From contig CAKRJY010000009.1 of the NCBI GenBank assembly GCA_934352055.1, forward strand, positions 34,207 through 98,206: a stretch of DNA of 64,000 nucleotides. The letters run 5' to 3'. Both the position numbers and the translations under genes were made by a program. This stretch comes from an uncultured Lachnospiraceae bacterium (GTDB lineage Bacteria > Bacillota > Clostridia > Lachnospirales > Lachnospiraceae). Position 1 is the first letter of the stretch; every line of letters begins with the position of its first letter. The notes under the pieces are model-generated. The model worked only from the letters and a program-made list of their open reading frames with translations. It was not told where the DNA came from and searched no databases. Positions 23,997 to 64,000 of this stretch are shown in pieces.

Positions 23997-25130
23997 CTAT
24001 ATTTCTAAATATCCTATCTTGCGAAAATAATCTATATATCCACTAATATACTTTATATCTGTTTCATTCCATTCAAAACCAACTTTTCTTAGGAACCACA
24101 GTGTAAATTTATTTTCTATACGGATATTACTGTCATATACCAACCTGCCTTGTTCATCCATATCATTCTGAAATGCTTCAAAGATATACTCTGTATTACT
24201 TTGTTTCATCGTCTCCTGAAGTGCGCAATTGAACTCTGCTCCACTTACCACTTTCATAGGTATTCCAAGTTCGTGCACCACCTCTAGGAATCGGTTAAAA
24301 TGTATGACTTTATCACTATTCAGATGAAATACACATTGCTTATCTGCATACTGCGCAATCTTAACGATACCCTCTGCTGTCTTATCAATCGGTGAAAATT
24401 CTGCATACAATGGTATCAGATAATTAGGGAATAAAGAAAATTCCAAGATTGCTTTTACTCTGGTAAGAAAGGCATTCGATGTATAGTTTGGTTGGAACTT
24501 ATAATCACTTGCACGATTCGTCAAATTTCCTACACGAATGACCTTTGCATTTAAACCATCTAACATGGCATCATATACTTTTCGTTCCGCTTCAAATTTG
24601 CTACGAATATATACATTATCCAAAGGCTGCCCAATATAAAATGATGTCTCACAAAAGAATTTTTCCTCATCAGAACGATAGACGGTAAAATCATCTGCCA
24701 TACTATTTCCACTCACACTAAGTGTTGAAATATGTATCAGTTTTGCTCTCATCTTTTTGGCATACTCTATGACATGTGATGTTCCCTCTGTATTTACTCT
24801 GTGAAAATAACTATATGATCCATAATGCTTTACACTGGCTGCTGTATGTATTACAGTCTGCACATCTGAAGGCATTTCATCAGATAATCCTTCTTTTTCA
24901 ATATCACCAATGATAGGAATAATCCTCTTATTTATCTCAGATACATACCTATCTCCAAAATAATATTGAAGAATTTCTTTTAAACGCCCGCGTCTGTCAT
25001 CCGCCTGATCACCTCTGATAAGACAATATATCTTTCCGTTTTCCTTCTGCATCAACTCATTAAGCACATGTGCCCCAAGAAATCCTGTTGCCCCTGTAAG
25101 AAGTACATTTCCCAAACTTTGCTTCTCAAA
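23997..25130 (-). other. NRPS domain R (NAD(P)H-dependent thioester reductase), approximate bounds
   Basis: Rossmann motif TGATGFLG and YxxxK (YIRSK). It is the last domain of the protein. Confidence 0.7.
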
Positions 25131-28100
25131 GATAGCATCTTCTTCCACAACATTCTTATGAAAGAAATCTTTGTATTTATCAAAATCTGATTCTTTATAT
25201 CGTACTTTTTCTTTCTTTTCTCCTTTCAAGAAATTGCATAAAGTTCTGACTGTCGGATAATCAAAAACGTTCTGCAATGACATTTCGATGCCTTTTCCAT
25301 GTGCCTTAGCAACATACTCGATCGCAGCTAGGCTATCTCCGCCATATGCAAAGAAATCATCCTCCACACCGACTTTTTCTATATGCAGGATTTCACCTAG
25401 TAATTGACATAAATCACGCTCCATTTCTGTCTCGGGTGCCACATATTCATTTGCTAAAAATGTAAAATCAGGAACTGGCAGATTCTTCCTATCTGTTTTT
25501 CCACTGGCTGTCATAGGCATGGCATCCAAATGCATAAAATAATTTGGCACCATATACTTTGGCAGTTTAGATGACAGATGACTTCTCAATTCCTTTTCAT
25601 CAATCTCGTTTTGCGCTGTATAATATCCAACCAGATACTGTCGGTTATTCTCATCACGCTTATCTGCGACTGCTGTAAGTTGGATTCCCGAAAAAGCACT
25701 CATCACATTTTCGATCTCTCCCAGTTCAATGCGCAGTCCTCTTATCTTTACCTGCGTATCTATTCTTCCCAGATAGGCAATCTCTCCATCCGCTCTCCAG
25801 CAAGCCAGATCCCCCGTGTGATACATGATTTTTCCATGATGATTTTCCGGTGTCGCAAATGAATTTGGCACAAACTTTTCCGCTGTGAGTTCCGGTCGGT
25901 TTAGATACCCCTTACCAACTCCTGCTCCTGCAATGCAAAGTTCTCCCGCAACACCTATTGGCAGTGGTTTGTTGTCCCTATCGAGAATGTAGATTTGTGT
26001 GTTGGCTATTGGGGAACCGATGGTGATGTCAGACTTGAAATCACCTCCTACATTCCAGACACTACATTCACTTGGTCCTAGTGGATTAAAGACTTTCGCG
26101 CTACTAATGCCCCTTATCTTCTGGAAAAGTACGTCTGTAAGTGCTTCTCCAGAAGATACGACTAGTTGTATCTGTTGAAAATAACTATCCGTTCCTGCTT
26201 CATCTTTTATGTATAGTTCTAACCTGGTCGGCGTTGTCTCGATAATATTTACCTTATTATCCACGACCAATTTTCGAAACAACTCCTTATTATTACTTGC
26301 CTCCTCACTTGCAAGAACTACAGTCCATCCATGTACCAATGGCAGAAGGGTTTCTGCAATAAAAAAATCAAACGATATTGTGTTTACACTAACAACTATC
26401 TGATTTTCTAAAGATTGTGCATCTGAAACAATATTGTTATTTAAACAGAAATTCGCTATACCTTTATGCTTCAACACACATCCTTTGGGTCTTCCCGTAC
26501 TACCGGACGTATAGATAATGTAGCAAGAATCCTCTGATAAATATCTTACATTTGTATGTAGTGTATCCCTAAAATCATATTCTCTCAAATTAAGATACTT
26601 AACGTGCCACCCATCTGTTAATTCTCTATCTGTAAGAATCAATGAGACATTGCAATCATTTAGCATATAATCTATTCGGTCTTTAGGATATCTGTGATCG
26701 ATTGGTAAAAATATGCCGCCTACTTTCAATACTGCCAACTGACTGATAACTGTTAATTCTGTTCTATCCAGATATGCACCTACAATATTACCTATCTTAA
26801 TTCCAACATCAATCATCTTTTGCGCCAATGCATCTGACATTTCATCTAATTGTTTATATGTAAACTTCTTATCCTCAAATACCAATGCCACCTTTTCCGG
26901 TGTCTTTTTTGACTGCTCCGTAAAGAGTTCGTGAACGCACTTTTCCCTTGGATATTCCACATAGGTATCATTAAATCCTTCTATAACCTGATGATACTCC
27001 TCAGGCGACATTACCTCTATTTCTGATACATCCTCTTTATCCAACTGTTCTAAAATTCTTGTATATGCAATTATCAGCCTATCTATTAAGTTTTCATCAT
27101 ACTTTGCACCATTAAATTCCATTCTGGCTTTCAATCCATCTTTGACAGGAGTCAACTCCATCATGAGGTCGAACTTTGATGTATTCGTAGGTATCGGCTC
27201 CGGCACAACTATTTCTTCTCCAAGAGCAAACCTCTTATCACCCTCTGCCTGATATACAAAGGATGTATTGATCACCCTCTTATCCTCCATGCCTACAGCA
27301 TCTGCCATCCATGCAAATGGTAATTCCTGATGTTCAAATAACCCCAAGACCTGTTGCTTTACCCTCTGCATATATTCCTTTACAGCACCAGAAACATCCA
27401 TATGTGCAGGGAGTGTATTTACAAACATTCCTGCCATATCCTTTGTATCTGCATAGATACGGTTTTTAAGAACAATACTACTCAATACACTGCTGTTTCC
27501 GCTATATTTCGATAAAAGGATTCCATATGCTCCCCAGCATACCATGGTATCTGTCATATTATACTTTCTTGCATAATTTCTAACTGCAAGACTCGCACCT
27601 TCCGGTATCTGATATACTTTTGAGTAGCCTCCTTCTACCGGTTTCTTTGTCGCAGGAAGTATCACCGGTTCAAAATCACACTTTAATTGTTCAACAAAAT
27701 AATCTTGATGCCTTGTCATATCCTGCTTGTAGAAAAAGTCCGCATAATCTCCATATGTTATCGGCTCATCACACATCATTTTTCCCTCATATTCTCCGAG
27801 TATATCTCTTAAAAGAATATGCAGTGTCTCTCCATCTGAAACAATATGGTGCATATCAAAAAGTATGTCATGTTCCGTCATTCCCACCCTGACTAAAGGA
27901 GTTTTTGCCAGATCAAAAGGTCTTACAAATTGGCTAGCGTCCTTTTCCTCATATTGTTCAAATACCAGTTCCACGTTATTATCATATACGCCGACTAATT
28001 CCTGCCCGTCTGATTCTATGTGGCTCAATAAAATTTTATGATGTCGGATTGCCCGAATCATACTTTCTTTCAACCTATTTCTATCAATTCCACTTGGTAT

Positions 28101-31100
28101 GCGTATTCTTGCCGGCATATTATATACTAGGGATTTTGGTTCTCTACTATAGGCAGCATAAATTGCTTTTTGCTGCGGTAAAAGTTTATATGTATTTTTC
28201 TTATTGGCTTTTATCCTCACAATATGATCAGCACCTTCAATACACTTTGCAAGATTTTCCAGAACTGAATTTTCCATGATATCTTTTATTGATATTTGCA
28301 CGTCAAATTCTTTTTCTATCTCAGTGATCATCGAAATAGCAATCAAACTATCACCGCCACATGCGAAGAAATCATCCGTTTTACCAATTTGATCTAACTG
28401 CAAATATTGTTGCCATATATTTGCAAGTTTTTTCTCGATCAAACTTTCAGGTTCCACATATTCTCTTTCCGACATTGTAAAATCCGGAACCGGAAGATTC
28501 TTTCTATCCGTTTTACCACTGGCTGTCATAGGCATAGCATCCAAACGCATAAAATAATTTGGCACCATATACTTTGGCAGTTTAGATGACAGATGACTTC
28601 TCAATTCCTTTTCATCAATCTCGTTTTGCGCTGTATAATATCCAACCAGATACTGTCGGTTATTCTCATCACGCTTATCTGCGACTGCTGTAAGTTGGAT
28701 TCCCGAAAAAGCACTCATCACATTTTCGATCTCTCCCAGTTCAATGCGCAGTCCTCTTATCTTTACCTGCGTATCTATTCTTCCCAGATAGGCAATCTCT
28801 CCATCCGCTCTCCAGCAAGCCAGATCCCCCGTGTGATACATGATTTTTCCATGATGATTTTCCGGTGTCGCAAATGAATTTGGCACAAACTTTTCCGCTG
28901 TGAGTTCCGGTCGGTTTAGATACCCCTTACCAACTCCTGCTCCTGCAATGCAAAGTTCTCCCGCAACACCTATTGGCAGTGGTTTGTTGTCCCTATCGAG
29001 AATGTAGATTTGTGTGTTGGCTATTGGGGAACCGATGGTGATGTCAGACTTGAAATCACCTCCTACATTCCAGACACTACATTCACTTGGTCCAAGTGGA
29101 TTAAATACTTTTGCTCTGCTAATTCCCCTAATCTTCTGGAGAAGTACTTCCGAAAGTGCTTCTCCAGAAGATACAATTAATTGCATCTGCTGGAAATAAC
29201 TATCTTCTTCCTCGTCTTTTGTATACAGTTCAAGCCGAGTTGGCGTTGTTTCTATAATATTTACATTATTATCTTCTACCAATTTACGGAATAATTCCTT
29301 ATTGTTACTTTCCTCCTCACTTGCCATAACTACTGTCCACCCCTGTACCAAAGGGAGTAATGTCTCCGCAATAAAGAAGTCAAAGGAGATTGTATTTACA
29401 CTAATGACTATCTGGTTTTCTAAAGATTGTGCATACGGAACAATATTGTTATTTAAACAGAAGTTGCTTAATCCCTTGTGTTTTAACATACATCCCTTAG
29501 GCTTGCCCGTGCTTCCGGATGTGTAAATAATATAGCAGGGATCGTCCGCTTCAACTGTTACTGTCTTATTCCATATATCATCAAACTGATAATGGCTCAG
29601 ATTTAGATAATTTGCATCCCACTCGTCGGGAAGTTCCTTATCTGTTATTACCAATCGTACTGTACAATCCATCAGCATATAATCTATTCGGTCTTTTGGA
29701 TAACGATGATCGATCGGCAGGAAAATACCACCTGCCTTTAAAACAGCAAGTTGTGAAATCACAGTATAACTTGTTCTATCCAAATATGCTCCAACTACTT
29801 CTCCTTTGCTCACTCCTAATGCGTGCAATCGTTGTGCCAATGCACTTGATCTTTCATCCAGCACTTTATAAGTCAAATATTCTTCTCCCGACACCAATGC
29901 CACCTTTTCCGGGGTCTTTTTTGCCTGCTTCATAAAGAGTTCGTGAACACACTTTTCCCTTGGATATTCCACATAGGTATCATTAAAGTTTTCTAGCAGT
30001 ATTGTTCTTTCTTCATAAGGAACAATTTCTATGTCCTTGAGCATCGTTACCTTTTCTTCCGAGATCTGCCACAATACATATTCTATACGTTTCAAAATAT
30101 ATGCAATTTCTGCCGCATCCTGAAAGACCGAGGTCTGATAATCTATGGTTATGGTATGTGTACCATTACCATCCCGGTTATCCACGTGCATAACAAAAGG
30201 CACTTCACTATATCCATTGGAATACCATTCTGTTCTGGCATCTATATCTGTTGTTGCGTTTTGATAACTCATCATCACATCATATAGATTATCTGAAAAT
30301 TGATATTTTTTCCGCAGAGATTCCACAATTTCAGCATATGGATATTTCTGATGGCGAAAAATTTCCATATGTCCTTTCGTGATCTGTTTACTGATATCCA
30401 AAATACTTACATCATTTTCTATATCAATCGTGAAGGGCATTGTGGATATAAACATTCCAGCAATTTTCTTTTCCTTCGCATTACAGCGATTTAGGATAGG
30501 TACACCTATAGTAATGCGCCGATTTTCCGGGTTGATCTTTGCCAGATAGATCATCAGGGCTGTTTCAAATAACACAGCAGGGGTTATTTGATACTTCTTT
30601 CCATAATTGATGATTGCATGATCTAATTCCACAGGTAACTGCCTGATGTATCTGCTTGCCTCAATAGCATGATTTTGCCTGATACCTGTTTTCATAACCG
30701 TTTTTTCGGGTTGCTGCATATATTTATTATTCCAATATAGAGCATCCTTCTGATATTTGTCCGATGTCAGATACGTCTTTTCATTTTCTATATAGTCTCT
30801 ATAATCCACCTCCTCACACATGTCCTTCTGACCTGTTTTTAAGGCATTATATATCTGCTCTACCTGCTTTGCCATAATACTGAAGGTCCATGCATCAGAA
30901 ATCAAATGACTCAAATTTACAAGGATTCCACTGTGATTTTCCACCTCGATTACCATAAATCTATACATTGCTTTCTCGGTAAGACCAATAGGTTCTTTTG
31001 CAAATTGCTTAGCATAAGTTTCATATTCTTGCATGGTAGCAAAAGACAAATCCGGTATTTCTTCTACGATATCAGAAACATATTGCATAGGCTGTGTTTT

Positions 31101-31289
31101 TTCCACAAAGCGAAGGCGCATACCACTCTGACTCTTTACAAACTCATATAGTGCCTGTTTCAATAATGCACAATCTCTTTTTTCCTCATAAAAAATTGCT
31201 CCGCATTGATTGCTAATCGCGGTATCTGAATAATATTTCTGCAAATTCCATATATTACGCTGTGGTGTTGTCAGTTTAAAATAGTCCAT
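23997..31289 (-). CDS. bimodular non-ribosomal peptide synthetase, C-A-T-C-A-T-R (terminal thioester reductase)
   Basis: 2430 aa. Contains SHLISDAW (C1), YIIYTSGSTGKPKG/...RPKG (A3, twice), GGDSL (twice), MHHIVSDGE (C2), LLTGATGFLGAHVL plus YIRSK (SDR-type R domain). AAGGAG RBS. Confidence 0.9.
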   Translation of the reverse strand: MDYFKLTTPQRNIWNLQKYYSDTAISNQCGAIFYEEKRDCALLKQALYEFVKSQSGMRLRFVEKTQPMQYVSDIVEEIPDLSFATMQEYETYAKQFAKEPIGLTEKAMYRFMVIEVENHSGILVNLSHLISDAWTFSIMAKQVEQIYNALKTGQKDMCEEVDYRDYIENEKTYLTSDKYQKDALYWNNKYMQQPEKTVMKTGIRQNHAIEASRYIRQLPVELDHAIINYGKKYQITPAVLFETALMIYLAKINPENRRITIGVPILNRCNAKEKKIAGMFISTMPFTIDIENDVSILDISKQITKGHMEIFRHQKYPYAEIVESLRKKYQFSDNLYDVMMSYQNATTDIDARTEWYSNGYSEVPFVMHVDNRDGNGTHTITIDYQTSVFQDAAEIAYILKRIEYVLWQISEEKVTMLKDIEIVPYEERTILLENFNDTYVEYPREKCVHELFMKQAKKTPEKVALVSGEEYLTYKVLDERSSALAQRLHALGVSKGEVVGAYLDRTSYTVISQLAVLKAGGIFLPIDHRYPKDRIDYMLMDCTVRLVITDKELPDEWDANYLNLSHYQFDDIWNKTVTVEADDPCYIIYTSGSTGKPKGCMLKHKGLSNFCLNNNIVPYAQSLENQIVISVNTISFDFFIAETLLPLVQGWTVVMASEEESNNKELFRKLVEDNNVNIIETTPTRLELYTKDEEEDSYFQQMQLIVSSGEALSEVLLQKIRGISRAKVFNPLGPSECSVWNVGGDFKSDITIGSPIANTQIYILDRDNKPLPIGVAGELCIAGAGVGKGYLNRPELTAEKFVPNSFATPENHHGKIMYHTGDLACWRADGEIAYLGRIDTQVKIRGLRIELGEIENVMSAFSGIQLTAVADKRDENNRQYLVGYYTAQNEIDEKELRSHLSSKLPKYMVPNYFMRLDAMPMTASGKTDRKNLPVPDFTMSEREYVEPESLIEKKLANIWQQYLQLDQIGKTDDFFACGGDSLIAISMITEIEKEFDVQISIKDIMENSVLENLAKCIEGADHIVRIKANKKNTYKLLPQQKAIYAAYSREPKSLVYNMPARIRIPSGIDRNRLKESMIRAIRHHKILLSHIESDGQELVGVYDNNVELVFEQYEEKDASQFVRPFDLAKTPLVRVGMTEHDILFDMHHIVSDGETLHILLRDILGEYEGKMMCDEPITYGDYADFFYKQDMTRHQDYFVEQLKCDFEPVILPATKKPVEGGYSKVYQIPEGASLAVRNYARKYNMTDTMVCWGAYGILLSKYSGNSSVLSSIVLKNRIYADTKDMAGMFVNTLPAHMDVSGAVKEYMQRVKQQVLGLFEHQELPFAWMADAVGMEDKRVINTSFVYQAEGDKRFALGEEIVVPEPIPTNTSKFDLMMELTPVKDGLKARMEFNGAKYDENLIDRLIIAYTRILEQLDKEDVSEIEVMSPEEYHQVIEGFNDTYVEYPREKCVHELFTEQSKKTPEKVALVFEDKKFTYKQLDEMSDALAQKMIDVGIKIGNIVGAYLDRTELTVISQLAVLKVGGIFLPIDHRYPKDRIDYMLNDCNVSLILTDRELTDGWHVKYLNLREYDFRDTLHTNVRYLSEDSCYIIYTSGSTGRPKGCVLKHKGIANFCLNNNIVSDAQSLENQIVVSVNTISFDFFIAETLLPLVHGWTVVLASEEASNNKELFRKLVVDNKVNIIETTPTRLELYIKDEAGTDSYFQQIQLVVSSGEALTDVLFQKIRGISSAKVFNPLGPSECSVWNVGGDFKSDITIGSPIANTQIYILDRDNKPLPIGVAGELCIAGAGVGKGYLNRPELTAEKFVPNSFATPENHHGKIMYHTGDLACWRADGEIAYLGRIDTQVKIRGLRIELGEIENVMSAFSGIQLTAVADKRDENNRQYLVGYYTAQNEIDEKELRSHLSSKLPKYMVPNYFMHLDAMPMTASGKTDRKNLPVPDFTFLANEYVAPETEMERDLCQLLGEILHIEKVGVEDDFFAYGGDSLAAIEYVAKAHGKGIEMSLQNVFDYPTVRTLCNFLKGEKKEKVRYKESDFDKYKDFFHKNVVEEDAIFEKQSLGNVLLTGATGFLGAHVLNELMQKENGKIYCLIRGDQADDRRGRLKEILQYYFGDRYVSEINKRIIPIIGDIEKEGLSDEMPSDVQTVIHTAASVKHYGSYSYFHRVNTEGTSHVIEYAKKMRAKLIHISTLSVSGNSMADDFTVYRSDEEKFFCETSFYIGQPLDNVYIRSKFEAERKVYDAMLDGLNAKVIRVGNLTNRASDYKFQPNYTSNAFLTRVKAILEFSLFPNYLIPLYAEFSPIDKTAEGIVKIAQYADKQCVFHLNSDKVIHFNRFLEVVHELGIPMKVVSGAEFNCALQETMKQSNTEYIFEAFQNDMDEQGRLVYDSNIRIENKFTLWFLRKVGFEWNETDIKYISGYIDYFRKIGYLEI
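25230..25440 (-). other. NRPS domain T2 (peptidyl carrier), approximate bounds
   Basis: DDFFAYGGDSLAAIEY, with the Ser codon at 25332-25334. Confidence 0.7.
25465..26975 (-). other. NRPS domain A2 (adenylation), approximate bounds
   Basis: Second copy of NDTYVEYPREKCVHELF ... GKTDRKNLPVPDF. Confidence 0.7.
25532..26078. repeat. 547-bp tract identical to 28547..29093 (direct repeat inside the NRPS gene, A2 copy)
   Basis: I compared the two stretches base by base and found no mismatches. The offset is 3015 nt. Flanking A-domain DNA is only about 80-90% identical by eye. Confidence 0.85.
27010..28230 (-). other. NRPS domain C2 (condensation), approximate bounds
   Basis: Canonical MHHIVSDGETL near 27,846. 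Confidence 0.7.
28250..28450 (-). other. NRPS domain T1 (peptidyl carrier), approximate bounds
   Basis: DDFFACGGDSLIAISM, with the Ser codon at 28347-28349. Confidence 0.7.
28480..29990 (-). other. NRPS domain A1 (adenylation), approximate bounds
   Basis: Runs from NDTYVEYPREKCVHELF to GKTDRKNLPVPDF. Core motifs SGSTGKPKG, NPLGPSEC, YHTGDL, GRIDTQVKIRG. Confidence 0.7.
28547..29093. repeat. 547-bp tract identical to 25532..26078 (A1 copy)
   Basis: As above. Also reflected in the identical antisense track ORFs 25578..25862 and 28593..28877. Confidence 0.85.
30020..31289 (-). other. NRPS domain C1 (N-terminal, starter-type condensation domain), approximate bounds
   Basis: The active-site region reads LSHLISDAWTF (second His and Asp of HHxxxDG retained). 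It sits before any A/T domain. Confidence 0.6.
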
Positions 31290-55842: not shown

Positions 55843-56394
55843 TTAGTCTTCTTTTGTAAGGCTTGATGACTTCGCGCCAATCTTAGTATAACCCATGCCA
55901 AGCAGAGTTCCAAGAATTGCTGTAATAATAATATTTGCTACAAATGCACATGCACCCTGTGCAAATACCTTATCAGTAGGTTCTGAATAGATAACGATGT
56001 CCAGTACCGGAGCAACCAGAATCCATGCAACCGCATTTGTTACAATCTGTACTATATTAAAAAGTACAATTGCTTTGCGGTCAAATCCGCCTTCTTTAAT
56101 CTGATACTTCTTAGCGAAAAGACCAACACCGATACCAATCACAGCTTCCGGAATAACCCAGCTCCACCAGATACTTCCATAAAACATAGCATCGCCAAGT
56201 GCATGACCAAGAATACCTACAATACCACCAACAACCGGTCCAAATACTGCTGCTAAGAATGCAAGGACTGCTGCTCTTGGCTGTAAGGAAGTGTTAGGAA
56301 TAATTCCCAATGGAATCTGCACCTCTGTAAGCACGATAAAAAGCGCTGTACCGATTGCTGTTGCAACGACTTCTTTAATACCAAACTTTTTCAT
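55843..56394 (-). CDS. ECF transporter substrate-specific (S) component, substrate unknown
   Basis: 183 aa, about 6 TM helices. First gene of an S-A-T unit. AAGGAGG RBS. Confidence 0.7.
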   Translation of the reverse strand: MKKFGIKEVVATAIGTALFIVLTEVQIPLGIIPNTSLQPRAAVLAFLAAVFGPVVGGIVGILGHALGDAMFYGSIWWSWVIPEAVIGIGVGLFAKKYQIKEGGFDRKAIVLFNIVQIVTNAVAWILVAPVLDIVIYSEPTDKVFAQGACAFVANIIITAILGTLLGMGYTKIGAKSSSLTKED

Positions 56395-56428
56395 TGTTTT
56401 TTCCTCCTTGTTTGTATAATACTGCCTT

Positions 56429-56457
56429 ATTATATGTTATCTTGACATTTTTCTCAA
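56429..56457 (-). promoter_or_regulatory. sigma-A promoter of the ECF operon
   Basis: Minus strand: TTGAGA, 17 nt spacer, TATAAT. The leader is short (about 30 nt), so there is no room for a riboswitch. Confidence 0.5.
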
Positions 56458-56470
56458 TGTCCATTTACAC

Positions 56471-56506
56471 AAAAAATGCCGCAAATCCGTTGGATTTTTG
56501 GCATTT
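56471..56506 (-). terminator. rho-independent terminator
   Basis: Minus strand: aatgcc..aaatcc-aac-ggattt..ggcatt composite stem followed by tttttt. Confidence 0.55.
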
Positions 56507-56523
56507 TATGTGGTTCTGTTTTC

Positions 56524-56916
56524 TTATGAATACAATTCCTTATAAATAGCATCCAGATCATAGTCTGGTGCATATTTCTTGCCAACATCATAAACTCTTT
56601 GGACTTCGGCAACATCCATATCAAAGAAATCTGCTATCTGACTCGTACTTTTTCCTCGGTTCATCTGTTGCATGATTACAGAAATCACATTCTGTCTGCG
56701 CCCTGCTTTGAGTCCCTCTGCTCGTCCTTCTTCGCGTCCTTCCGCACGTCCTTCTTCCAGACCCTGATTATGGTATATTCTCTTCAGTAGTTCTTTTTCT
56801 TCATATGCTCTCATATAACTCAGCCCTACCTTTCTGTTATCCTTTATCTGAGATACCATGCTCTGTAATTCCCGCAAGTCTTCCGTCACTGCGTTTTCGT
56901 CTGTGGATTCTTCAAA
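56524..56916 (-). pseudogene. 5'-truncated tandem duplicate of the adjacent Rpn-like gene (C-terminal third only)
   Basis: Encodes FEESTDENAVTEDLRELQSMVSQIKDNRKV...YDLDAIYKELYS, near-identical to residues about 200-321 of the 56945..57910 product, plus an extra EGRAEGREEGRAEG insertion. No upstream coding sequence. Confidence 0.7.
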
Positions 56917-56944
56917 TCCCTACGGCATCTACTTACTGCATGTC

Positions 56945-57910
56945 TTATGAATACAATTCCTTATAAATGGCATCCAGATCATAGTCTGGTGCATATTTCT
57001 TGCCAACATCATAAACTCTTTGGACTTCAGCAACATCCATATCAAAGAATTCCGCTATCTGACTCGTACTTTTTCCTCGGTTCATCTGTTGCATAATCAC
57101 AGAAATCATCTGCTGTCTGCGTCCTGCTTTGAGTCCTGCTTCGCGTCCTTCTTCCAGACCCTGATTATGGTATATTCTCTTCAGTAGTTCTTTTTCTTCA
57201 TATGCTCTCATATAACTCAGCCCTACCTTTCTATTATCCTTTATCTGAGATACCATGCTCTGTAATTCCCGCAAGTCTTCCGTCACTGCGTTCTCGTCTG
57301 TGGACTCTTCAAAATATGTAAGAAATTTCCGTAAATCTTCAGAGTAATTCCCAACACTACCCTTCGTATATAAGAAAATCGTCATTGCTCCATCCTCATA
57401 TTCCATATCCGGTTGCTCGACACAGTAATTCTTAATTGTGTAAACCATCCGGTTATATCCAAAGGGATCAAATGGGGTAATGAAAATCACATATACTTTT
57501 TTTAGTTTCCGATAATCCTCTCCACTGGGAAGCGCTGCATTATCAATCTTCGCATGGTAAAATCGAACTCGCTTTGGGAGTCCTTCTACTGATATTGTAT
57601 CATGATTTTTCTCAGGTTCAATATCAAAAATCGAAGAATCATCCTCGATAATCTGCGCCATTTCTTCTGTTTTTCCATCTGGGCTCACCGTCTCTTCAAT
57701 ATACACATCCAATCTGGCGCCGTGCATATCGGTGTCCACTCCATAAAACACCTTTTGCGGTGTGATCTGAATGTCTGCTATTTCTTTTCCTAAAATAAGT
57801 TTAATCAACTTCCTTGAAAAAGGAATACCTACGTCTGGGTCCGTCATCATTGCACCAAATAAAAAGTTGTCAATCAGACTTAAGTCCTGCAAAGTTTTCT
57901 TTTGCTTCAT
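56945..57910 (-). CDS. Rpn-family (PD-(D/E)xK, TIGR01784-like) recombination-promoting nuclease / putative transposase
   Basis: 321 aa. N-terminus LIDNFLFGAMM... and GARLDVYIEE...IFDIEPEK nuclease-like motif. C-terminal EEGREAG repeats typical of this family. Confidence 0.65.
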   Translation of the reverse strand: MKQKKTLQDLSLIDNFLFGAMMTDPDVGIPFSRKLIKLILGKEIADIQITPQKVFYGVDTDMHGARLDVYIEETVSPDGKTEEMAQIIEDDSSIFDIEPEKNHDTISVEGLPKRVRFYHAKIDNAALPSGEDYRKLKKVYVIFITPFDPFGYNRMVYTIKNYCVEQPDMEYEDGAMTIFLYTKGSVGNYSEDLRKFLTYFEESTDENAVTEDLRELQSMVSQIKDNRKVGLSYMRAYEEKELLKRIYHNQGLEEGREAGLKAGRRQQMISVIMQQMNRGKSTSQIAEFFDMDVAEVQRVYDVGKKYAPDYDLDAIYKELYS

Positions 57911-58085
57911 AATGCCTCTCTTTCCGGCAGTACAAGATAATAGAATCGACCTGTCTGCCTAAATATAAAATTGTGTGTATACATTCATGGAAACATTGGT
58001 CGAACTGACCGGAGAATTCCTAGAAAGTGCATCTAGCATAACAAAGTGGCTCGTAAATTGCAAGTCACCTGAAAAAAAATCTCAA

Positions 58086-58131
58086 CAAAAAGAGGTCGCA
58101 GGGAAATGATTTCTCAATTCCCTACGACCTC
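58086..58131 (-). terminator. terminator of the left flagellin gene (member of the GAGGTCGCAGGGA hairpin family)
   Basis: Minus strand: gaggtcgtaggga-N14-tccctgcgacctc followed by tttttgtt. Confidence 0.65.
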
Positions 58132-58200
58132 ATAAGTTTGTGCTCATTTATTACAAATCAGCATCGCAAATCATCAATAGATATTTACGAAAAACCTAGA

Positions 58201-59586
58201 TTACTGAAGTAATGAAAGAACACCCTGTGTAGACTGGTTAGCCTGAGCAAGCATTGACTGTCCTGCCTGTGTAAGAATGTTATTCTTAGAGTACTTAACC
58301 ATTTCATCAGCCATATCTGTATCGCGGATACGTGATTCAGCAGATGTTGTGTTTTCAACAACGTTATCCAAGTTGTCGATTGTGTGCTCAAGACGGTTCT
58401 GGATAGCACCAAGGCTAGATCTCTGATCTGAAACCTTCTGTAATGCATCGCTGATAGCATCGATTGCATATGTTGCAGCCTTACCTGAATCATCAGATAC
58501 GTTTAATCCCTGAATTCCTAAGTATGCAGAATTCATTGTCTCGATATTTACATTAATCTTATTTGTCATGTCTGCATCAGAACCTACATGAAGATTGAAG
58601 GACAACTGCTGTGCTGCATCTGCTTTTCCTTTAGTGATTTCAAATGTTACACCCGTATCCTTTGCATAAGTTCCAGCTTGAATTGTTGCTGCTGTTTTTG
58701 TTGCACCAATGTTGTTAGCTGCTGTCAGCTCAGCTGTCATAAGTCCAACTGCCTTCGCTGCAGAAATAACAGATGAATCTGACTTATCAACACCTGTTGC
58801 ATCAAAATCTGCTACTGTCATAGATTTTCCGCCAACTTCTACTGTTGCACCAGCTTTAACAAGCTTTTCTAATTCAGATTTTTTATACTTGAAATCAGCT
58901 TCGCTATGATTAGCATCTTCCACCAAGGTGTATTCTTGTCCATTAATCTTTGCTTTTACTGTTCCATCATAAGTATTTCCAAGTAATGCCTTTGCATCTG
59001 CTTCTGTTGCACCAATTGTATAGTTCTTTCCACCAATTGTAACAGCTTTTCCTGGATCAAGTGCACCAGCAGCAACCTTGAATGTTCCTGTTGTTTCGCC
59101 ATCTGTTAAAGTTCCCTTTAATCCAGCATCATGAGCCTTCATGTACACTTCTTTTGTTGCAGCATTATCATCACCCTTCAACAAGTATGTCTCGTTGAAC
59201 TTTGTTGTTTCAGCAACACGATCGATTTCTGTTGTTAACTGCTCAATCTCTGACTGGATAGCATCTCTATCTGTCTGTGAGTTTGTTCCGTTAGAAGCCT
59301 GTACTGAAAGTTCGTTCATTCTCTGAAGCATTGAGTGAACTTCTGTCAAAGCACCTTCAGCTGTCTGTACTGCAGATACACCATCCTGTGCGTTTGTAGA
59401 AGCCTGATCAAGACCACGAATCTGCTTACGCATCTTTTCAGAAATAGAAAGACCTGCTGCATCATCTGCTGCGCGGTTAATTCTATAACCTGAAGAAAGT
59501 TTCTCTGTTGACTTAGCCTGCTGACCTGCTGTAATGTTAAGCATTCTTGAGGCATTTGCTGCCTGCATATTGTGTTGAACAACCAT
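58201..59586 (-). CDS. flagellin (461 aa)
   Basis: MVVQHNMQAANASRMLNITAGQQAKSTEKLSSGYRINRAADDAAGLSISEKMR... N-terminal D0/D1 region and C-terminal ...LGAIQNRLEHTIDNL...SMLAQANQSTQGVLSLLQ. Confidence 0.95.
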   Translation of the reverse strand: MVVQHNMQAANASRMLNITAGQQAKSTEKLSSGYRINRAADDAAGLSISEKMRKQIRGLDQASTNAQDGVSAVQTAEGALTEVHSMLQRMNELSVQASNGTNSQTDRDAIQSEIEQLTTEIDRVAETTKFNETYLLKGDDNAATKEVYMKAHDAGLKGTLTDGETTGTFKVAAGALDPGKAVTIGGKNYTIGATEADAKALLGNTYDGTVKAKINGQEYTLVEDANHSEADFKYKKSELEKLVKAGATVEVGGKSMTVADFDATGVDKSDSSVISAAKAVGLMTAELTAANNIGATKTAATIQAGTYAKDTGVTFEITKGKADAAQQLSFNLHVGSDADMTNKINVNIETMNSAYLGIQGLNVSDDSGKAATYAIDAISDALQKVSDQRSSLGAIQNRLEHTIDNLDNVVENTTSAESRIRDTDMADEMVKYSKNNILTQAGQSMLAQANQSTQGVLSLLQ

Positions 59587-59594
59587 AATATTTA

Positions 59595-59644
59595 CCTCCG
59601 TGTGTTTGTTTGGTTTGTCCCCATGAAAAATCCTTTTTTCATGG
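59595..59644 (-). promoter_or_regulatory. flagellin 5' leader: 10-bp hairpin with a GGA loop plus a GGA-containing SD (CsrA-type sites)
   Basis: Minus strand: ccatgaaaaa-AGGA-tttttcatgg (59621-59644) and acaCGGAGGt SD (59595-59600). Confidence 0.45.
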
Positions 59645-59695
59645 TTTTGATTAATAGTTCCTTTATAATCAACCCGCGCCTAGGTTCGCAGGTAA

Positions 59696-59725
59696 ATTAT
59701 CTTTTTTGTTGGGGATTGTTGTGAA
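59696..59725 (-). promoter_or_regulatory. candidate promoter inside the left repeat arm
   Basis: Minus strand: TTCACA, 18 nt spacer, GATAAT. The base before the -10 is A here and C in the right copy (aaaAGATAAT vs aaaCGATAAT). Confidence 0.25.
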
Positions 59726-59729
59726 CCAC

Positions 59730-59753
59730 GTAACAAAATAGATATTGTGTTTC
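59730..59753. promoter_or_regulatory. degenerate 24-bp palindrome at the inner end of the left arm (candidate recombinase site)
   Basis: gtaacaaaata-ga-tattgtgtttc. Nine of eleven arm positions are complementary. Homologous to the perfect site at 60758-60781. Confidence 0.4.
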
Positions 59754-59920
59754 ATCCCTTACACCATATATTTCGGACATTACTCTAAATACTTAACCCC
59801 CAAAATATAAATATTTTTCCAAAAGTTGAATGTATTTCTAAATGCTGCTTCTAAATTTTACTTTTTCACTCAACCGTTAATTATGCAAACAAATATATAC
59901 CTGCTATCTAGGATTCCTTA

Positions 59921-59929
59921 ATTATAGCA
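59921..59929 (-). promoter_or_regulatory. extended -10 promoter element (TGCTATAAT) in the unique core, facing the left flagellin gene
   Basis: Minus strand reads catGcTATAAT. No good -35, which is usual for TGn promoters. The surrounding DNA is AT-rich, so a chance match is possible. Confidence 0.3.
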
Positions 59930-60169
59930 TGATATTTGAATTTGAATATCCATTATTAGGGCTTTATTTGACCTCAGAACAGAATCTTGATTGTTAGACG
60001 TATTTTCAGTTGGATTTTAGTTTTTCATTCAATGATTCGGGCATGCGAACGAAATCTTGCGAACATTCCGTTTCTATTTTCTGAAATACTTTGCAAGAGC
60101 ATGTGGCAGAAGCGCGGGGAACCGCCATGGTGGAGTATAATAGCCTGCAAAAACCAGGAGGTTATTACC

Positions 60170-60748
60170 ATGAATAAAGCACAACCCATAAAAAATGCTA
60201 TGCAATTAGAAACTTTTAAAAATTATTACTATAGAGTGCATTATCATCCCAGAAATCACATGTTTATCACGATGGGATTAAATACAGCACTGCGCGTATC
60301 AGACTTGCTTCGCCTCAAATGGTGTGATGTGTTCGATTATGACAATGTATGTTATCGAGAGCATGTGTTTTTGGTTGAACAAAAGACGCAGAAGAAATCC
60401 TATATTTATATAAATGAAAGGGTGGCAGAGACACTTCTATGGTATCAAAATACTTATGCGTATATGCCGCAACCGCAGGAATACTTGTTTTCAAACGAAA
60501 ACGGGACTGCTATTTCGCGTGTAAGCGCATACCGCATTGTGCGTCTGGCAGCAGAAAACTGTCATATTGAGGGCGTAATCAGTCCACATTCTCTTCGTAA
60601 AACTTTTGGCTATCAAGCCTGGATAAAAGGCGTTTCGCCGGTTCTATTAATGGATATTTATCAACATTCCTCATTTGAAATCACAAAACGATACCTAGGT
60701 ATTGAGCAGGATGAACGAGATTCTGTTTTCCGTGAAGTCATTATCTAG
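60170..60748 (+). CDS. small (192 aa) tyrosine site-specific recombinase, catalytic domain only (FimB/FimE-sized)
   Basis: Start at MNKAQPIK, 7 nt after AGGAGG. Catalytic set present: LRVSDLLRL (Arg I), EQKTQKK (Lys), HSLRKTF (His-x-x-Arg), HSSFEITKRYL (His...Tyr). Confidence 0.85.
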   Translation: MNKAQPIKNAMQLETFKNYYYRVHYHPRNHMFITMGLNTALRVSDLLRLKWCDVFDYDNVCYREHVFLVEQKTQKKSYIYINERVAETLLWYQNTYAYMPQPQEYLFSNENGTAISRVSAYRIVRLAAENCHIEGVISPHSLRKTFGYQAWIKGVSPVLLMDIYQHSSFEITKRYLGIEQDERDSVFREVII

Positions 60749-60757
60749 CAGACATGT

Positions 60758-60781
60758 GTAACACAATATCTATTGTGTTAC
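60758..60781. promoter_or_regulatory. perfect 24-bp palindrome at the inner end of the right arm (candidate recombinase site)
   Basis: GTAACACAATA-tc-TATTGTGTTAC, with 11-bp perfect arms. It begins 10 nt after the recombinase stop codon. Confidence 0.45.
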
Positions 60782-60785
60782 GCGG

Positions 60786-60815
60786 TTCACAGCAATTCCC
60801 TACAAAAACGATAAT
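60786..60815 (+). promoter_or_regulatory. candidate promoter inside the right repeat arm
   Basis: TTCACA, 18 nt spacer, GATAAT. The extended sequence aaaCGATAAt also resembles a sigma-28 -10 (CGATAA), but I see no TAAA -35. Confidence 0.25.
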
Positions 60816-60868
60816 TTACCTGCGAACCTAGGCGCAGGCTAATTATAAAGACACTTTATTAATCAAAA

Positions 60869-60919
60869 CCATGAAAAACGGATTTTTCATGGGGACAAAC
60901 CAAAACAAACACACGGAGG
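60869..60919 (+). promoter_or_regulatory. flagellin 5' leader: 10-bp hairpin with a GGA loop plus a GGA-containing SD (CsrA-type sites)
   Basis: ccatgaaaaa-CGGA-tttttcatgg (60869-60892) and acaCGGAGGt (60914-60919). Confidence 0.45.
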
Positions 60920-60927
60920 TAAATATT

Positions 60928-62439
60928 ATGGTTGTTCAACACAATATGCAGGCAGCAAATGCCTCAAGAATGCTTAACATTACAGCAGGTCAGCAGGCTA
61001 AGTCAACAGAGAAACTTTCTTCAGGTTATAGAATTAACCGCGCAGCAGATGATGCAGCAGGTCTTTCTATTTCTGAAAAGATGCGTAAGCAGATTCGTGG
61101 TCTTGATCAGGCTTCTACAAACGCACAGGATGGTGTATCTGCAGTACAGACAGCTGAAGGTGCTTTGACAGAAGTTCACTCAATGCTTCAGAGAATGAAC
61201 GAACTTTCAGTACAGGCTTCTAATGGAACAAACTCAAAGACAGATAGAGATGCTATCCAGTCAGAAATTGAACAGTTAACAACAGAAATCGATCGTGTTG
61301 CTGAAACAACAAAGTTCAACGAAACATACCTTTTGAAGGGTGATGCTGATGGCAAAAAGTCTTCTACAACAATCAATGCACATGATGCCGGCTTAAAGGG
61401 AACTTTAACAAATGTTGGTACAGGAACAGCTACTTTCAAGCTTGATAAAGAATTAGCAAATGATGACAAGGTAACGATTGGTGGTAAGGAATATACGATT
61501 GATACTACTAAGGCAGATACAGCTGTTGTAAAGCAGCCAACAAGTGCTGCAATCACACAAGAAACTGCAGGTGCAGCTGGCGCTAAAGCCAAATACAAAC
61601 TTGATTTGGCTGGTATGACAAGTACAGCCGGTGATGTAACCTTTAATATTGGCGGCAAAGATTATAAAGTAACTGTTGCTGCCGGAGATGATGCTGCTGC
61701 AATCGCAGGAAAATTAAAAGCAGCATATGCCGCTGATGAAATTACCGCTAATGCAACTGCCGGCAAATACAAGGCAACTGCTACTGGCACTGCTATCACA
61801 TTTGAAGCGGAAAATAATGGTGTCATTGCAGCTGGTGAAGCATTAACAGGAACAGCTACAATCGCTGCAGTAGAAAATGGCACAAATGAAATCAGTATAA
61901 ATGATGCTTACAACATGATGGCTAAAGAGTTGGAAACAGCTAGCAGCCTTGGAGCAGATACTGGTGCTACCGTAACTAATAACGGCAATGGTTCTTTCAC
62001 CATCGCTGAAGGAAGTGCTGCTATCACAGCTTCCTTGTCTTTCAACTTGCATGTTGGTTCTGATGCAGATATGACAAACAAGATTAATGTTGATATCAAC
62101 ACAATGAATTCTTCATATCTTGGAATCAAAGGATTAGATGTTTCTGATAAGACAGGTACAGCTGCAACATATGCAATTGATGCTATTGCTGATGCTTTAC
62201 AGAAGGTTTCTGATCAGAGATCTAGTCTTGGTGCTATCCAGAACCGTCTTGAGCACACAATCGACAACTTGGATAACGTTGTTGAAAACACAACCTCTGC
62301 TGAATCACGTATCCGCGATACAGATATGGCTGATGAAATGGTTAAGTACTCTAAGAATAACATTCTTCAGCAGGCAGGACAGTCAATGCTTGCTCAGGCT
62401 AACCAGTCTACACAGGGTGTTCTTTCATTACTTCAGTAA
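60928..62439 (+). CDS. flagellin (503 aa)
   Basis: True start is MVVQHNMQ at 60928; the track ORF begins upstream at 60871. The first ~120 and last ~95 residues are near-identical to the left flagellin. The central ~290 residues are unrelated and A/T/G-rich. Confidence 0.95.
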   Translation: MVVQHNMQAANASRMLNITAGQQAKSTEKLSSGYRINRAADDAAGLSISEKMRKQIRGLDQASTNAQDGVSAVQTAEGALTEVHSMLQRMNELSVQASNGTNSKTDRDAIQSEIEQLTTEIDRVAETTKFNETYLLKGDADGKKSSTTINAHDAGLKGTLTNVGTGTATFKLDKELANDDKVTIGGKEYTIDTTKADTAVVKQPTSAAITQETAGAAGAKAKYKLDLAGMTSTAGDVTFNIGGKDYKVTVAAGDDAAAIAGKLKAAYAADEITANATAGKYKATATGTAITFEAENNGVIAAGEALTGTATIAAVENGTNEISINDAYNMMAKELETASSLGADTGATVTNNGNGSFTIAEGSAAITASLSFNLHVGSDADMTNKINVDINTMNSSYLGIKGLDVSDKTGTAATYAIDAIADALQKVSDQRSSLGAIQNRLEHTIDNLDNVVENTTSAESRIRDTDMADEMVKYSKNNILQQAGQSMLAQANQSTQGVLSLLQ

Positions 62440-62507
62440 TCTAGGTTTTTCGTAAATATCTTTTGATGATTTGCGATGCTGATTTGTAATAAATGAGCAC
62501 AAAACAA

Positions 62508-62550
62508 GAGGTCGCAGGGATTTAAAAATCAAATCCCTGCGACCTCTTTT
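62508..62550 (+). terminator. terminator of the right flagellin gene (GAGGTCGCAGGGATTT hairpin family)
   Basis: gaggtcgcagggattt-N7-aaatccctgcgacctc followed by tttt. Confidence 0.7.
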
Positions 62551-62564
62551 AATTGGTATGAAAG

Positions 62565-62664
62565 CAAGTTGGTATGGGTATGAAGTCAAGAAAAACAAGC
62601 CTAATACCCATAGAATCAAGTTGGCATGGGTATGAAGTTAAGAAAACCAAGTCTAATACCCATA
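62565..62664 (+). repeat. two tandem 52-bp-period units, each a hairpin (tatgggtat-N21-atacccata)
   Basis: caagttggtatgggtatgaagtcaagaaaaacaagcctaatacccata / caagttggcatgggtatgaagttaagaaaaccaagtctaatacccata. Present only in the right arm. Confidence 0.75.
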
Positions 62665-62843
62665 CAAACATATTTTTCTCCAAGTGACTTGCAATTTACA
62701 AGCCATTTTGTTATGCTAGATGCACTTTCTAGGAATTCTCCGGTCAGTTCGACCAATGTTTCCATGAATGTATACATACAAATTTATATTTTTAGGCAGA
62801 CAGGTCGATTTTACTATCTGGTACTGCCGGAAAGAGAGGCATT

Positions 62844-63797
62844 ATGAAGCAAAAGAAAACTTTGCAGGACTTAAGTCTGATTGACAACTTTTTATTTGGT
62901 GCCATGATGACGGACCCAGATGTTGGCATTCCCTTTTCAAGGAAGTTGATTAAACTTATTTTAGGGAAAGAAATAGCAGACATTCAGATCACACCGCAAA
63001 AGGTATTTTATGGAGTGGACACCGATATGCACGGCGCCAGATTAGATGTGTATATTGAAGAGACGGTGAACCCGGATGGGCAAACAGAGGAAATGGCGCA
63101 GATTATCGAGGATGATTCTTCGATTTTTGATATTGAACCTGAGAAAAATCATGATACAATATCAATAGAAGGACTTCCTAAGCGAGTCCGGTTTTACCAT
63201 GCGAAGATAGATAATGCAGCACTTCCTAGCGGAGAGGATTATCGGAAACTCAAAAAGGTATATGTGATTTTCATCACACCATTTGATCCCTTTGGATATA
63301 ATCGGATGGTTTACACAATCAAAAATTATTGTGTCGAGCAACCGGATATGGAATATGAGGATGGAGCAATGACAATTTTTTTATATACGAAGGGAAGCGT
63401 TGGGAATTATTCTGAGGATTTACAGAAATTTCTCACATACTTTGAAGAGTCCACAGACGAAAACGCAGTGACAGATGACTTGCGGGAATTACAGAGCATG
63501 GTATCTCAGATAAAAGATAACAGAAAGGTAGGACTGAGTTATATGAGAGCATATGAAGAAAAAGAACTACTGAAGAGAATATACCATAATCAAGGACTGG
63601 AAGAAGGACTCGAAGCAGGGCGCAGACAGCAGATGATTTCTGTGATCATGCAACAGATAAACCGAGGAAAAAGTACGGGTCAGATAGCAGAACTCTTTGA
63701 TATGGATGTTGCTGAAGTTCAAAGAGTTTATGATGTTGGCAAGAAATATGCACCGGATTATGATTTAGATGCCATTTATAAGGAATTGTGTTCATAA
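62844..63797 (+). CDS. Rpn-family (PD-(D/E)xK, TIGR01784-like) recombination-promoting nuclease / putative transposase
   Basis: 317 aa. More than 95% identical by eye to the 56945..57910 product. Confidence 0.65.
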   Translation: MKQKKTLQDLSLIDNFLFGAMMTDPDVGIPFSRKLIKLILGKEIADIQITPQKVFYGVDTDMHGARLDVYIEETVNPDGQTEEMAQIIEDDSSIFDIEPEKNHDTISIEGLPKRVRFYHAKIDNAALPSGEDYRKLKKVYVIFITPFDPFGYNRMVYTIKNYCVEQPDMEYEDGAMTIFLYTKGSVGNYSEDLQKFLTYFEESTDENAVTDDLRELQSMVSQIKDNRKVGLSYMRAYEEKELLKRIYHNQGLEEGLEAGRRQQMISVIMQQINRGKSTGQIAELFDMDVAEVQRVYDVGKKYAPDYDLDAIYKELCS

Positions 63798-63813
63798 GAC
63801 ATGCAATAAATTA

Positions 63814-63862
63814 GAGGTCGCAGGGATTTACAAATCCCCACGACCTCTTTCTTTCTCTTTTT
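63814..63862 (+). terminator. terminator (third full copy of the GAGGTCGCAGGGATTT hairpin)
   Basis: gaggtcgcagggattt-ac-aaatccccacgacctc followed by tttctttctcttttt. Confidence 0.6.
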
Positions 63863-63913
63863 CTTTATACGCTTATGCCCTATACTGGCTTATTCTTAGC
63901 ACCCACGACCATC

Positions 63914-64000
63914 CTACATATCCCAGTCTGCCTGTCTTGTATGTAAGAGTTCGTGCGATTTATGAGACAATGGTTCTCCTAAGAATTTATCATAAATCTG
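63914..64000 (-). CDS. possible 3' end of a minus-strand gene entering from the right edge
   Basis: Only one reverse frame is open to base 64000 (...QIYDKFLGEPLSHKSHELLHTRQADWDM*). Too short to identify. Confidence 0.25.
   Translation of the reverse strand, partial: QIYDKFLGEPLSHKSHELLHTRQADWDM

Follow-up and report, generated by a model that had tools for sequence, protein, structure and literature searches.

Architecture of the locus

The locus described here lies in a 64,000-nt stretch of DNA from an uncultured Lachnospiraceae bacterium (hereafter the window; 64 kb, all coordinates being positions within it) and comprises two divergently oriented flagellin genes on inverted arms, which flank a unique core coding for a small tyrosine recombinase (Table 1). 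The layout was examined with the list of open reading frames (ORFs), a repeat search and BLAST of the reverse-complemented left arm against the right arm. The left arm (56914-59754) and the right arm (60757-63829) align in three blocks of 91-94% identity, namely 59754-59100 with 60757-61414 (93.5%), 58605-58088 with 62035-62550 (91.4%) and 58080-56914 with 62672-63829 (92.4%), and the alignment is broken only at the unrelated central parts of both flagellin genes. Together with the domain and terminator searches, these blocks bear out the initial annotation, made from the DNA letters and an ORF list, which had described inverted arms, each with a flagellin gene accompanied by its leader, a terminator and an Rpn-like gene. 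The left Rpn copy scores above the TIGR01784 cut-off and thus belongs to the Rpn family (recombination-promoting nuclease/putative transposase).

Both flagellins match PF00669 (Flagellin_N, E ~1e-45) and PF00700 (Flagellin_C, E ~1e-28), which places them in the FliC/Hag family of flagellins. Residues 1-139 and the last ~135 residues of the 461-amino-acid (aa) and 503-aa proteins are near-identical and their middle parts are essentially unrelated, as had been noticed initially. At the nucleotide level, a 321-bp perfect repeat takes in the Shine-Dalgarno sequence and the start of the flagellin gene up to about codon 98.

The full R-K-HxxR-H-Y catalytic set first ascribed to the 192-aa recombinase was also upheld. 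The protein matches PF00589 with 69.6 bits (cut-off 27.1), the domain covering residues 28-176, and an alignment of 18 homologues shows no variation at R42, K72, H140-x-x-R143, H166 and Y175, which identifies it as a member of the tyrosine recombinase superfamily. Its nearest solved structures are XerH and XerA, at just E ~1e-4.

Table 1. Features of the flagellin locus, in window coordinates
Feature	Position	Strand	Evidence and remarks
Invertible segment, 1,052 bp including both sites	59730..60781		Length and content match the element seen both ways in L116 versus L119/L121/L123
Left recombination site, GTAACAaAAT-AGAT-ATTGTGTTtC	59730..59753		2 mismatches to right site; pattern search; family conservation; breakpoints in relatives
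Right recombination site, GTAACACAAT-ATCT-ATTGTGTTAC	60758..60781		Pattern search; breakpoints in relatives
Sigma-28/SigD-type promoter motif, outward	59770..59796	-	TTAAG, 14-15 nt spacer, TCCGAAAT; motif scan and clade/family conservation
Tyrosine recombinase, 192 aa, catalytic domain only	60170..60748	+	PF00589, E = 3.7e-19; preceded by ribosome-binding site AGGAGG
Flagellin A, 461 aa	58201..59586	-	Pfam Flagellin_N and Flagellin_C; in the window, the gene facing the putative invertible promoter
Flagellin B, 503 aa	60928..62439	+	Pfam; in the window, downstream of the recombinase gene, putative promoter directed away
Left flagellin leader	59587..59729	-	Hairpin 59621-59644, loop AGGA, RNA fold z = -2.4; Shine-Dalgarno GGAGG
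Right flagellin leader	60782..60927	+	Hairpin 60869-60892 and Shine-Dalgarno
321-bp perfect inverted repeat, left copy	59291..59611		Exact-repeat search; table of arm-discriminating single-nucleotide polymorphisms (SNPs)
321-bp perfect inverted repeat, right copy	60903..61223		Exact-repeat search; table of arm-discriminating SNPs
Hairpin terminator after 461-aa flagellin gene	58085..58130	-	Sequence AGGTCGTAGGGAA...TTCCCTGCGACCT then CTTTTTGTT; inverted-repeat partner of right terminator
Hairpin terminator after 503-aa flagellin gene, 20-bp stem	62506..62548		Terminator scan, sequence
Left-arm Rpn-family (PD-(D/E)XK) gene, 321 aa	56945..57910	-	NCBIfam TIGR01784, 74.7 bits (cut-off 52.1); weak Pfam PDDEXK_2 match
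Right-arm Rpn-family gene, 317 aa	62844..63797	+	ORF list, domain search; 92% nucleotide inverted repeat of left copy
Truncated third Rpn-family copy, C-terminal 121 aa	56524..56889	-	ORF list; direct repeats D1/D2, 93-95%

Recombination sites and natural inversion

A ~1-kb core was correctly recognized at the outset, but its true boundaries are the two 24-bp sites listed in Table 1. The 24-bp pattern has two matches in the 64 kb, at the core edges only, where 0 are expected by chance. Within each site, an asymmetric 4-bp centre (AGAT on the left, ATCT on the right) separates two half-sites of 10 bp. The two centres are reverse complements of each other, which is the signature of a pair of recombinase core sites in inverted orientation, as judged from the sequence.

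Both orientations of the element occur in nature, and the breakpoints fall at the sites. In the window's own species, the recombinase variant P0122 (same 90% protein cluster; core DNA 97.5% identical to that of the window) is found on metagenome contigs in one orientation (L116, L117, L118 and L124) and in the other (L119, L121 and L123), both drawn from different samples and assemblers. Between the orientations the 1,052-bp element is 99.7-100% identical, while the flanks are swapped and reverse-complemented at 98-100% identity and the overlaps coincide with the 24-bp sites. Since the 24-bp repeat is shorter than the assembler k-mers, these junctions must have read support. The arrangement on the 59-kb contigs L116 and L117 is opposite to that in the window: the promoter end of the element is turned towards the hydrogenase side and its 503/516-aa flagellin in these contigs, but towards the ECF side and the 461-aa flagellin in the window. 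The left site of the window departs from the consensus at two positions, including a C to A change in the half-site (consensus GTAACACAAT, window variant GTAACAAAAT), and the P0122 lineage carries the consensus there.

In a sister species, the cassette (recombinase 78% identical, with csrA and flagellin arms) sits between ECF-transporter and hydrogenase genes as in the window, and contigs L109, L111 and L112 are opposite in orientation to L110 and L113, with the exchange point inside the site. At least three species of the clade have kept the two-flagellin layout at this chromosomal position. Beyond the clade, comparison of L072 with L086 aligns the element in forward direction with its flanks (80% and 96% identity) reversed and swapped, the overlaps lying exactly at the sites; inversion at the sites is likewise seen in L072 versus L050, L052 versus L074 and L023 versus L028. 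The inversion is thus documented in a same-species variant, in a sister species and in related genomes.

Several further observations concern the sites and the element. The L072 and L086 cassettes are more diverged from each other (71% identity) than are their flanks, which may mean that the cassette was replaced or that the recombinase and sites evolve faster. Sister species carry tandem arrays of 2-3 recombination sites, ~40 bp apart, at one cassette end (L114:3958-4751; L115:2340-2443 and 3150-3173; L109:2214-2279), and the number of sites per end varies among contigs coding for the same recombinase, which suggests nested inversions between alternative site pairs. One 1,059-bp contig (L125) corresponds almost exactly to the site-to-site invertible segment, and many recombinase clusters are known from ~0.8-1.1 kb contigs alone. 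Such ~1-kb contigs would fit assembly graphs that branch at the sites when both orientations are present in one sample, a pattern that is suggestive only. A scan of JGI metagenome contigs for the core-left junction returned 0 matches.

Promoter, leaders and proposed mechanism

The initial annotation proposed that inversion of the core reassigns promoter activity from one flagellin to the other; the putative promoter can now be specified as sigma-28 type, at the recombinase-upstream end of the core. Located ~25 nt inward of the left site, on the strand that does not encode the recombinase, the motif is directed at the 461-aa flagellin, with an implied transcription start at ~59763, just within the left site. 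In the window's clade (window, L116, L109, L114, L011) the boxes GGGTTAAG and TCCGAA(A/G)TAT are kept and the spacer varies, the pattern that a functional promoter would be expected to show. A search of the arms upstream of each flagellin gene found no sigma-28 promoter, only a weak CGATAA fragment in one arm.

Each leader is ~150 nt long, with the Shine-Dalgarno sequence GGAGG and a 10-bp hairpin whose loop is AGGA in the left leader and CGGA in the right one. By analogy with Bacillus subtilis hag, the GGA loop and the GGA-containing Shine-Dalgarno sequence look like CsrA-type sites. An Rfam scan of 56000-64000 matched neither the core nor the leaders to a riboswitch or another known RNA and returned just two sub-threshold chance matches. 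The non-coding stretch from the promoter to the recombinase start (59757-60169) measures ~414 nt, compared with 73-250 nt in most relatives, and its extra ~290 nt have no Rfam match.

We propose, with a probability of roughly 80%, that two alternative flagellin genes are served here by an invertible promoter cassette that is self-contained and lies between them. The recombinase is predicted to bind both 24-bp sites and to invert the 1,052 bp between them. The single sigma-28/SigD-type promoter, whose activity is suggested by its sequence and its conservation across the family, would fire outward over the recombinase-upstream site, and the transcript would pass through the ~150-nt leader into the flagellin gene on the promoter side and end at the hairpin behind it. 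In the state captured by the window, the 461-aa flagellin would be ON and the 503-aa flagellin OFF, and a flip would reverse this. The filament would presumably keep identical D0/D1 assembly domains and swap its surface-exposed centre, the near-identical 5' and 3' coding ends being kept alike by putative gene conversion between the arms. The sites, the promoter motif, the natural inversion and the conserved layout all support the reassignment first proposed, while its effect on expression, like mutually exclusive expression of the two genes and a role of CsrA, is predicted from sequence. The same annotation had allowed for inversion of any segment between the flagellin 5' ends; crossing-over within the 321-bp repeat may offer a second, recombinase-independent route to the same exchange, but the switch point lies primarily at the 24-bp sites.

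A family of recombinase cassettes in Lachnospiraceae

More than 3,000 relatives of the recombinase have 189-196 aa. Scanning species-representative genomes, we counted at least 591 family loci, nearly all of them from Lachnospiraceae (Roseburia, Anaerocolumna, Waltera, Jutongia, Agathobacter and Eubacterium xylanophilum), and tallied sites, promoters and neighbours in the best 80 of these. A flagellin gene directly adjoins the cassette in about 63 of the 80 loci, and paired palindromic sites bracket the recombinase gene in 66, so that the inverted-repeat pair seen once in the window is a kept feature of its relatives. A sigma-28 match that scores 9/12 or better and lies on the outward strand, no more than 80 nt inside one site, is present in 64 of the 66 site-paired loci, compared with 3.75% of random 80-nt control windows.

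The loci fall into two subfamilies. In subfamily 1, which includes the window, the sites read GTAACACAAT-n4-ATTGTGTTAC and the promoter (consensus TAAAGTwTT...nCCGATAT) lies on the opposite strand just inside the recombinase-upstream site; in subfamily 2, the sites read ATGCAACATT...AATGTTGCAT and the promoter lies just inside the recombinase-downstream site. In both, the promoter reads outward over a site.

Loci with a single flagellin gene show a pronounced bias. The promoter is directed away from the flagellin in 51 of 54 genomes (tally over L012-L090), in both subfamilies despite the opposite promoter ends, and no conserved gene is found on the far side. It therefore appears that a majority of cells have most of the single-flagellin genes in the OFF state, and reference genomes presumably represent mostly that state. 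In the ten contigs listed for one well-sampled relative (P0017, 67% identical), the promoter points away from the flagellin in all, without polymorphism, and in the single-flagellin relative L015 no sigma-28 promoter was found between the site and the flagellin gene. Flagellins on both sides occur only in the window's clade and in E. xylanophilum (L083); there, therefore, one of the two would always be ON.

In most relatives a csrA paralogue (Pfam PF02599, 83-85 aa) lies beyond the other site and is followed by the flagellin gene. Examples within L098-L115 are L098:4671-4925 and L109:1900-2154 and 3088-3342. Where csrA is present, the switch would activate it along with the flagellin; it is absent from the arms of the window, which keep just the leader with its GGA motifs.

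The initial annotation regarded the locus as a previously undescribed two-flagellin switch. Our literature searches likewise found no published description, but the locus is not a one-off, as it belongs to this family of at least 591 loci, mostly one-flagellin ON/OFF switches. On balance, we lean towards the wider view that Lachnospiraceae cassettes consisting of a recombinase gene, a sigma-28 promoter, two palindromic sites and often csrA make flagellins phase-variable in hundreds of species, mostly OFF in the majority of cells, and that the window's clade has turned such a cassette into a two-antigen toggle, maybe with a homologous route via the 321-bp repeat that re-pairs leaders and gene bodies.

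Rpn-family genes recur just downstream of cassette-linked flagellin genes (window, L021, L042, L083, L084, L108 and L116). The full-length copies of the window belong to its duplicated arm, and next to the left-arm gene lies its tandem duplicate, the extra truncated copy at 56524-56889. In a further strain of this species (L116/L117:4794-7265), two tandem flagellin genes of 397/410 aa and 383 aa replace the 461-aa gene and occupy the arm opposite the 503/516-aa flagellin; hence, the flagellin content of the arms differs by strain. Two tandem 52-nt units, 88% identical and each with an internal hairpin TATGGGTAT...ATACCCATA, lie at 62562-62665 in the interval that separates terminator and Rpn gene in the right arm, and have no counterpart in the left arm. 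The largest gene of the window lies elsewhere (ORF 23997-31289, minus strand, 2,430 aa).

Exchange between the arms and alternative explanations

Four points weigh against the invertible promoter cassette. First, ~12 contigs of the window's own sub-lineage, recognized by window-type leaders, all show one core orientation relative to the leaders, and the left site has the two mismatches noted above. A strong bias towards this orientation, or a locked state, may exist in this lineage; the contrast with P0122 (0/12 versus 3/8) is only marginal. Second, the promoter motif scores 9/12 against the sigma-28/SigD consensus TAAA-N15-GCCGATAT, the one used for Lachnospiraceae flagellin promoters (PMC3720852), and this score, which also arises by chance elsewhere in the window, is not significant alone; the promoter is credible because of its position and conservation, not its score. 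Third, a sigma-70-like motif, TTCACA-18-GATAAT (10/12), is present in both leaders and, if active, would allow expression independent of the switch. Fourth, the terminator scan detected none between the recombinase gene and the flagellin gene that follows it, so that the 'OFF' gene could be expressed by read-through.

The arms themselves exchange sequence, as follows from exact repeats whose length varies by strain (110 bp in L001 and L003, 321 bp in the window, L002 and L004, with further exact arm repeats of 456 bp and 235 bp in L002) and from the mosaic right leader of L005. Four contigs from four samples (L006, L007, L008 and L010) join a right-type leader to a 461-type gene body; according to SNP mapping, the crossover lies inside the 321-bp identical stretch and the leaders stay with the core. 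Similar joins occur in L119 and L111. They represent either homologous recombination between the arms or assembly chimerism, since the 321-bp repeat exceeds the assembler k-mers, and for this reason L006, L007, L008 and L010 were dropped as proof of inversion. If homologous recombination is at work, the leader-core-leader block would flip, with the same regulatory effect.

These joins and the mosaic arms are what would be expected if the exchange proceeded by RecA-dependent crossing-over between the flagellin 5' ends, as in the sap system of Campylobacter fetus, with the recombinase being incidental. We consider this unlikely as the sole mechanism. The contigs in question are all short and of low coverage, some are possibly chimeras, and crossing-over in the 321-bp repeat leaves the 24-bp sites, their conservation throughout the family and the precise site-to-site inversions unexplained. 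The homologous route is best seen as a possible second route next to site-specific inversion of the cassette, not as an alternative to it.

Still less probable is that both flagellins are constitutively expressed from promoters in their own arms, and that core inversion affects expression of the recombinase alone or has no consequence for the flagellins. Each flagellin gene does have its own leader, Shine-Dalgarno sequence and terminator, and the sigma-70-like motif in both leaders could serve such promoters. However, sigma-70-like matches are not enriched in the region (9 found versus 14.1 expected), and in the L005/L116-type leader the -35 element and the spacing are destroyed while the flagellin gene is intact, which weakens the argument for a leak. 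Moreover, it is the cassette that has a sigma-28 promoter conserved family-wide, whereas the arms have none.

That the core is a small integrative or mobile element landed by chance between duplicated flagellin genes, as the public annotation of the recombinase as 'phage integrase family protein' and the nearby Rpn 'putative transposase' genes might imply, is highly improbable and was rejected, because the sites are inverted rather than direct, the element measures ~1 kb and has no other genes, the chromosomal locus is shared by three species, and the observed variants are inversions, not presence/absence.

Implications of the proposed flagellin switch

Lachnospiraceae are the main source of human gut flagellin antigens, and their flagellins, for example the Crohn's-associated CBir1 and Fla2-type antigens, are major gut targets of TLR5, antibodies and T cells. 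They code for several flagellins whose regulation is unclear. A 2013 survey of Roseburia and Eubacterium flagellin promoters reported some genes without an identifiable promoter and does not mention a recombinase (PMC3720852); a widespread recombinase switch would explain such promoter-less flagellin genes. Our full-text literature searches retrieved no description of flagellin invertons in Lachnospiraceae, although inverton catalogues and supplementary lists may hold such loci, and in general inverton surveys flagellar genes appear only as an enriched category. Invertible promoter switches are a known kind of element; the one proposed here is part of a large family for which no characterization was found in the literature.

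The switch predicts heterogeneity of flagellin expression within a strain and would offer an escape route from antibodies or flagellum-binding phages. Existing metagenomes can be screened for its orientation-specific junctions, which are simple markers. In its two-flagellin form the switch would be a clean natural toggle and could serve as a compact genetic part.

Comparison with known switches

A close functional parallel is the Hin/hix H-segment of Salmonella enterica (fljBA-fliC), in which, as proposed for the cassette, a ~1-kb segment holds its own recombinase gene and an outward promoter and two antigenically different flagellins with conserved termini alternate. However, Hin, a serine invertase, depends on Fis and an enhancer, whereas the sole Pfam match of the protein described here is the tyrosine-recombinase domain, which excludes it from the Hin/Gin/Cin serine invertases. 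In Salmonella, the promoter drives one flagellin together with FljA, the repressor of a distant second; here, the promoter would be aimed at either flanking gene, without a repressor, and it is of the sigma-28 type, unlike that of the Hin segment.

With the fimS switch of Escherichia coli, operated by FimB and FimE, the cassette shares short inverted repeats, which here surround a putative promoter, and a ~200-aa tyrosine recombinase built of the catalytic domain only; the 192-aa protein, whose domain spans residues 28-176, has no N-terminal core-binding domain. It is not an ortholog of FimB or FimE, scoring 36.6 and 35.3 bits in PRK09870 and PRK09871 against cut-offs of 221 and 222, and resembles them no further than in size and single-domain build. 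Reference genomes are biased to OFF for fimS, as they presumably are in the cassette family. In contrast to the 314-bp fimS, which has fimB and fimE outside the switch, the recombinase gene here is inside, the sites are 24-bp palindromes instead of 9-bp repeats, and the target is flagellin rather than fimbriae.

The flagellar switch of Clostridioides difficile is similar in that a tyrosine recombinase of a member of the Clostridia, RecV, inverts DNA and makes flagella phase-variable. That switch is a 154-bp element in the 5' untranslated region of the flgB operon, RecV acts in trans on several switches, and the control is exerted after transcription initiation, turning the whole flagellar and toxin regulon ON or OFF. 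The present cassette, by contrast, has its own recombinase and a putative sigma-28 promoter and would control individual flagellin genes.

In the sapA system of C. fetus, as proposed here, one promoter on an invertible segment lies between opposed homologues with conserved 5' ends, and a surface protein is replaced. The sap inversion proceeds by RecA-dependent homologous recombination in the conserved 5' regions and is not known to use a dedicated recombinase. A sap-type feature, the 321-bp perfect repeat, is present in the window, and the contigs with crossovers inside it may be assembly chimeras; given dedicated sites and a recombinase, recombination at the 5' ends would be at most secondary here.

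A tyrosine recombinase amid inverted repeats of very unequal length is also found in the ivr locus of Streptococcus pneumoniae (SpnD39III hsdS; CreX/PsrA), where the short repeats are recombined site-specifically and a long (~300-bp) repeat can recombine without the recombinase. Whereas ivr shuffles coding segments of a restriction specificity gene, the cassette in Lachnospiraceae would alternate whole genes, each with its own start, under one promoter.

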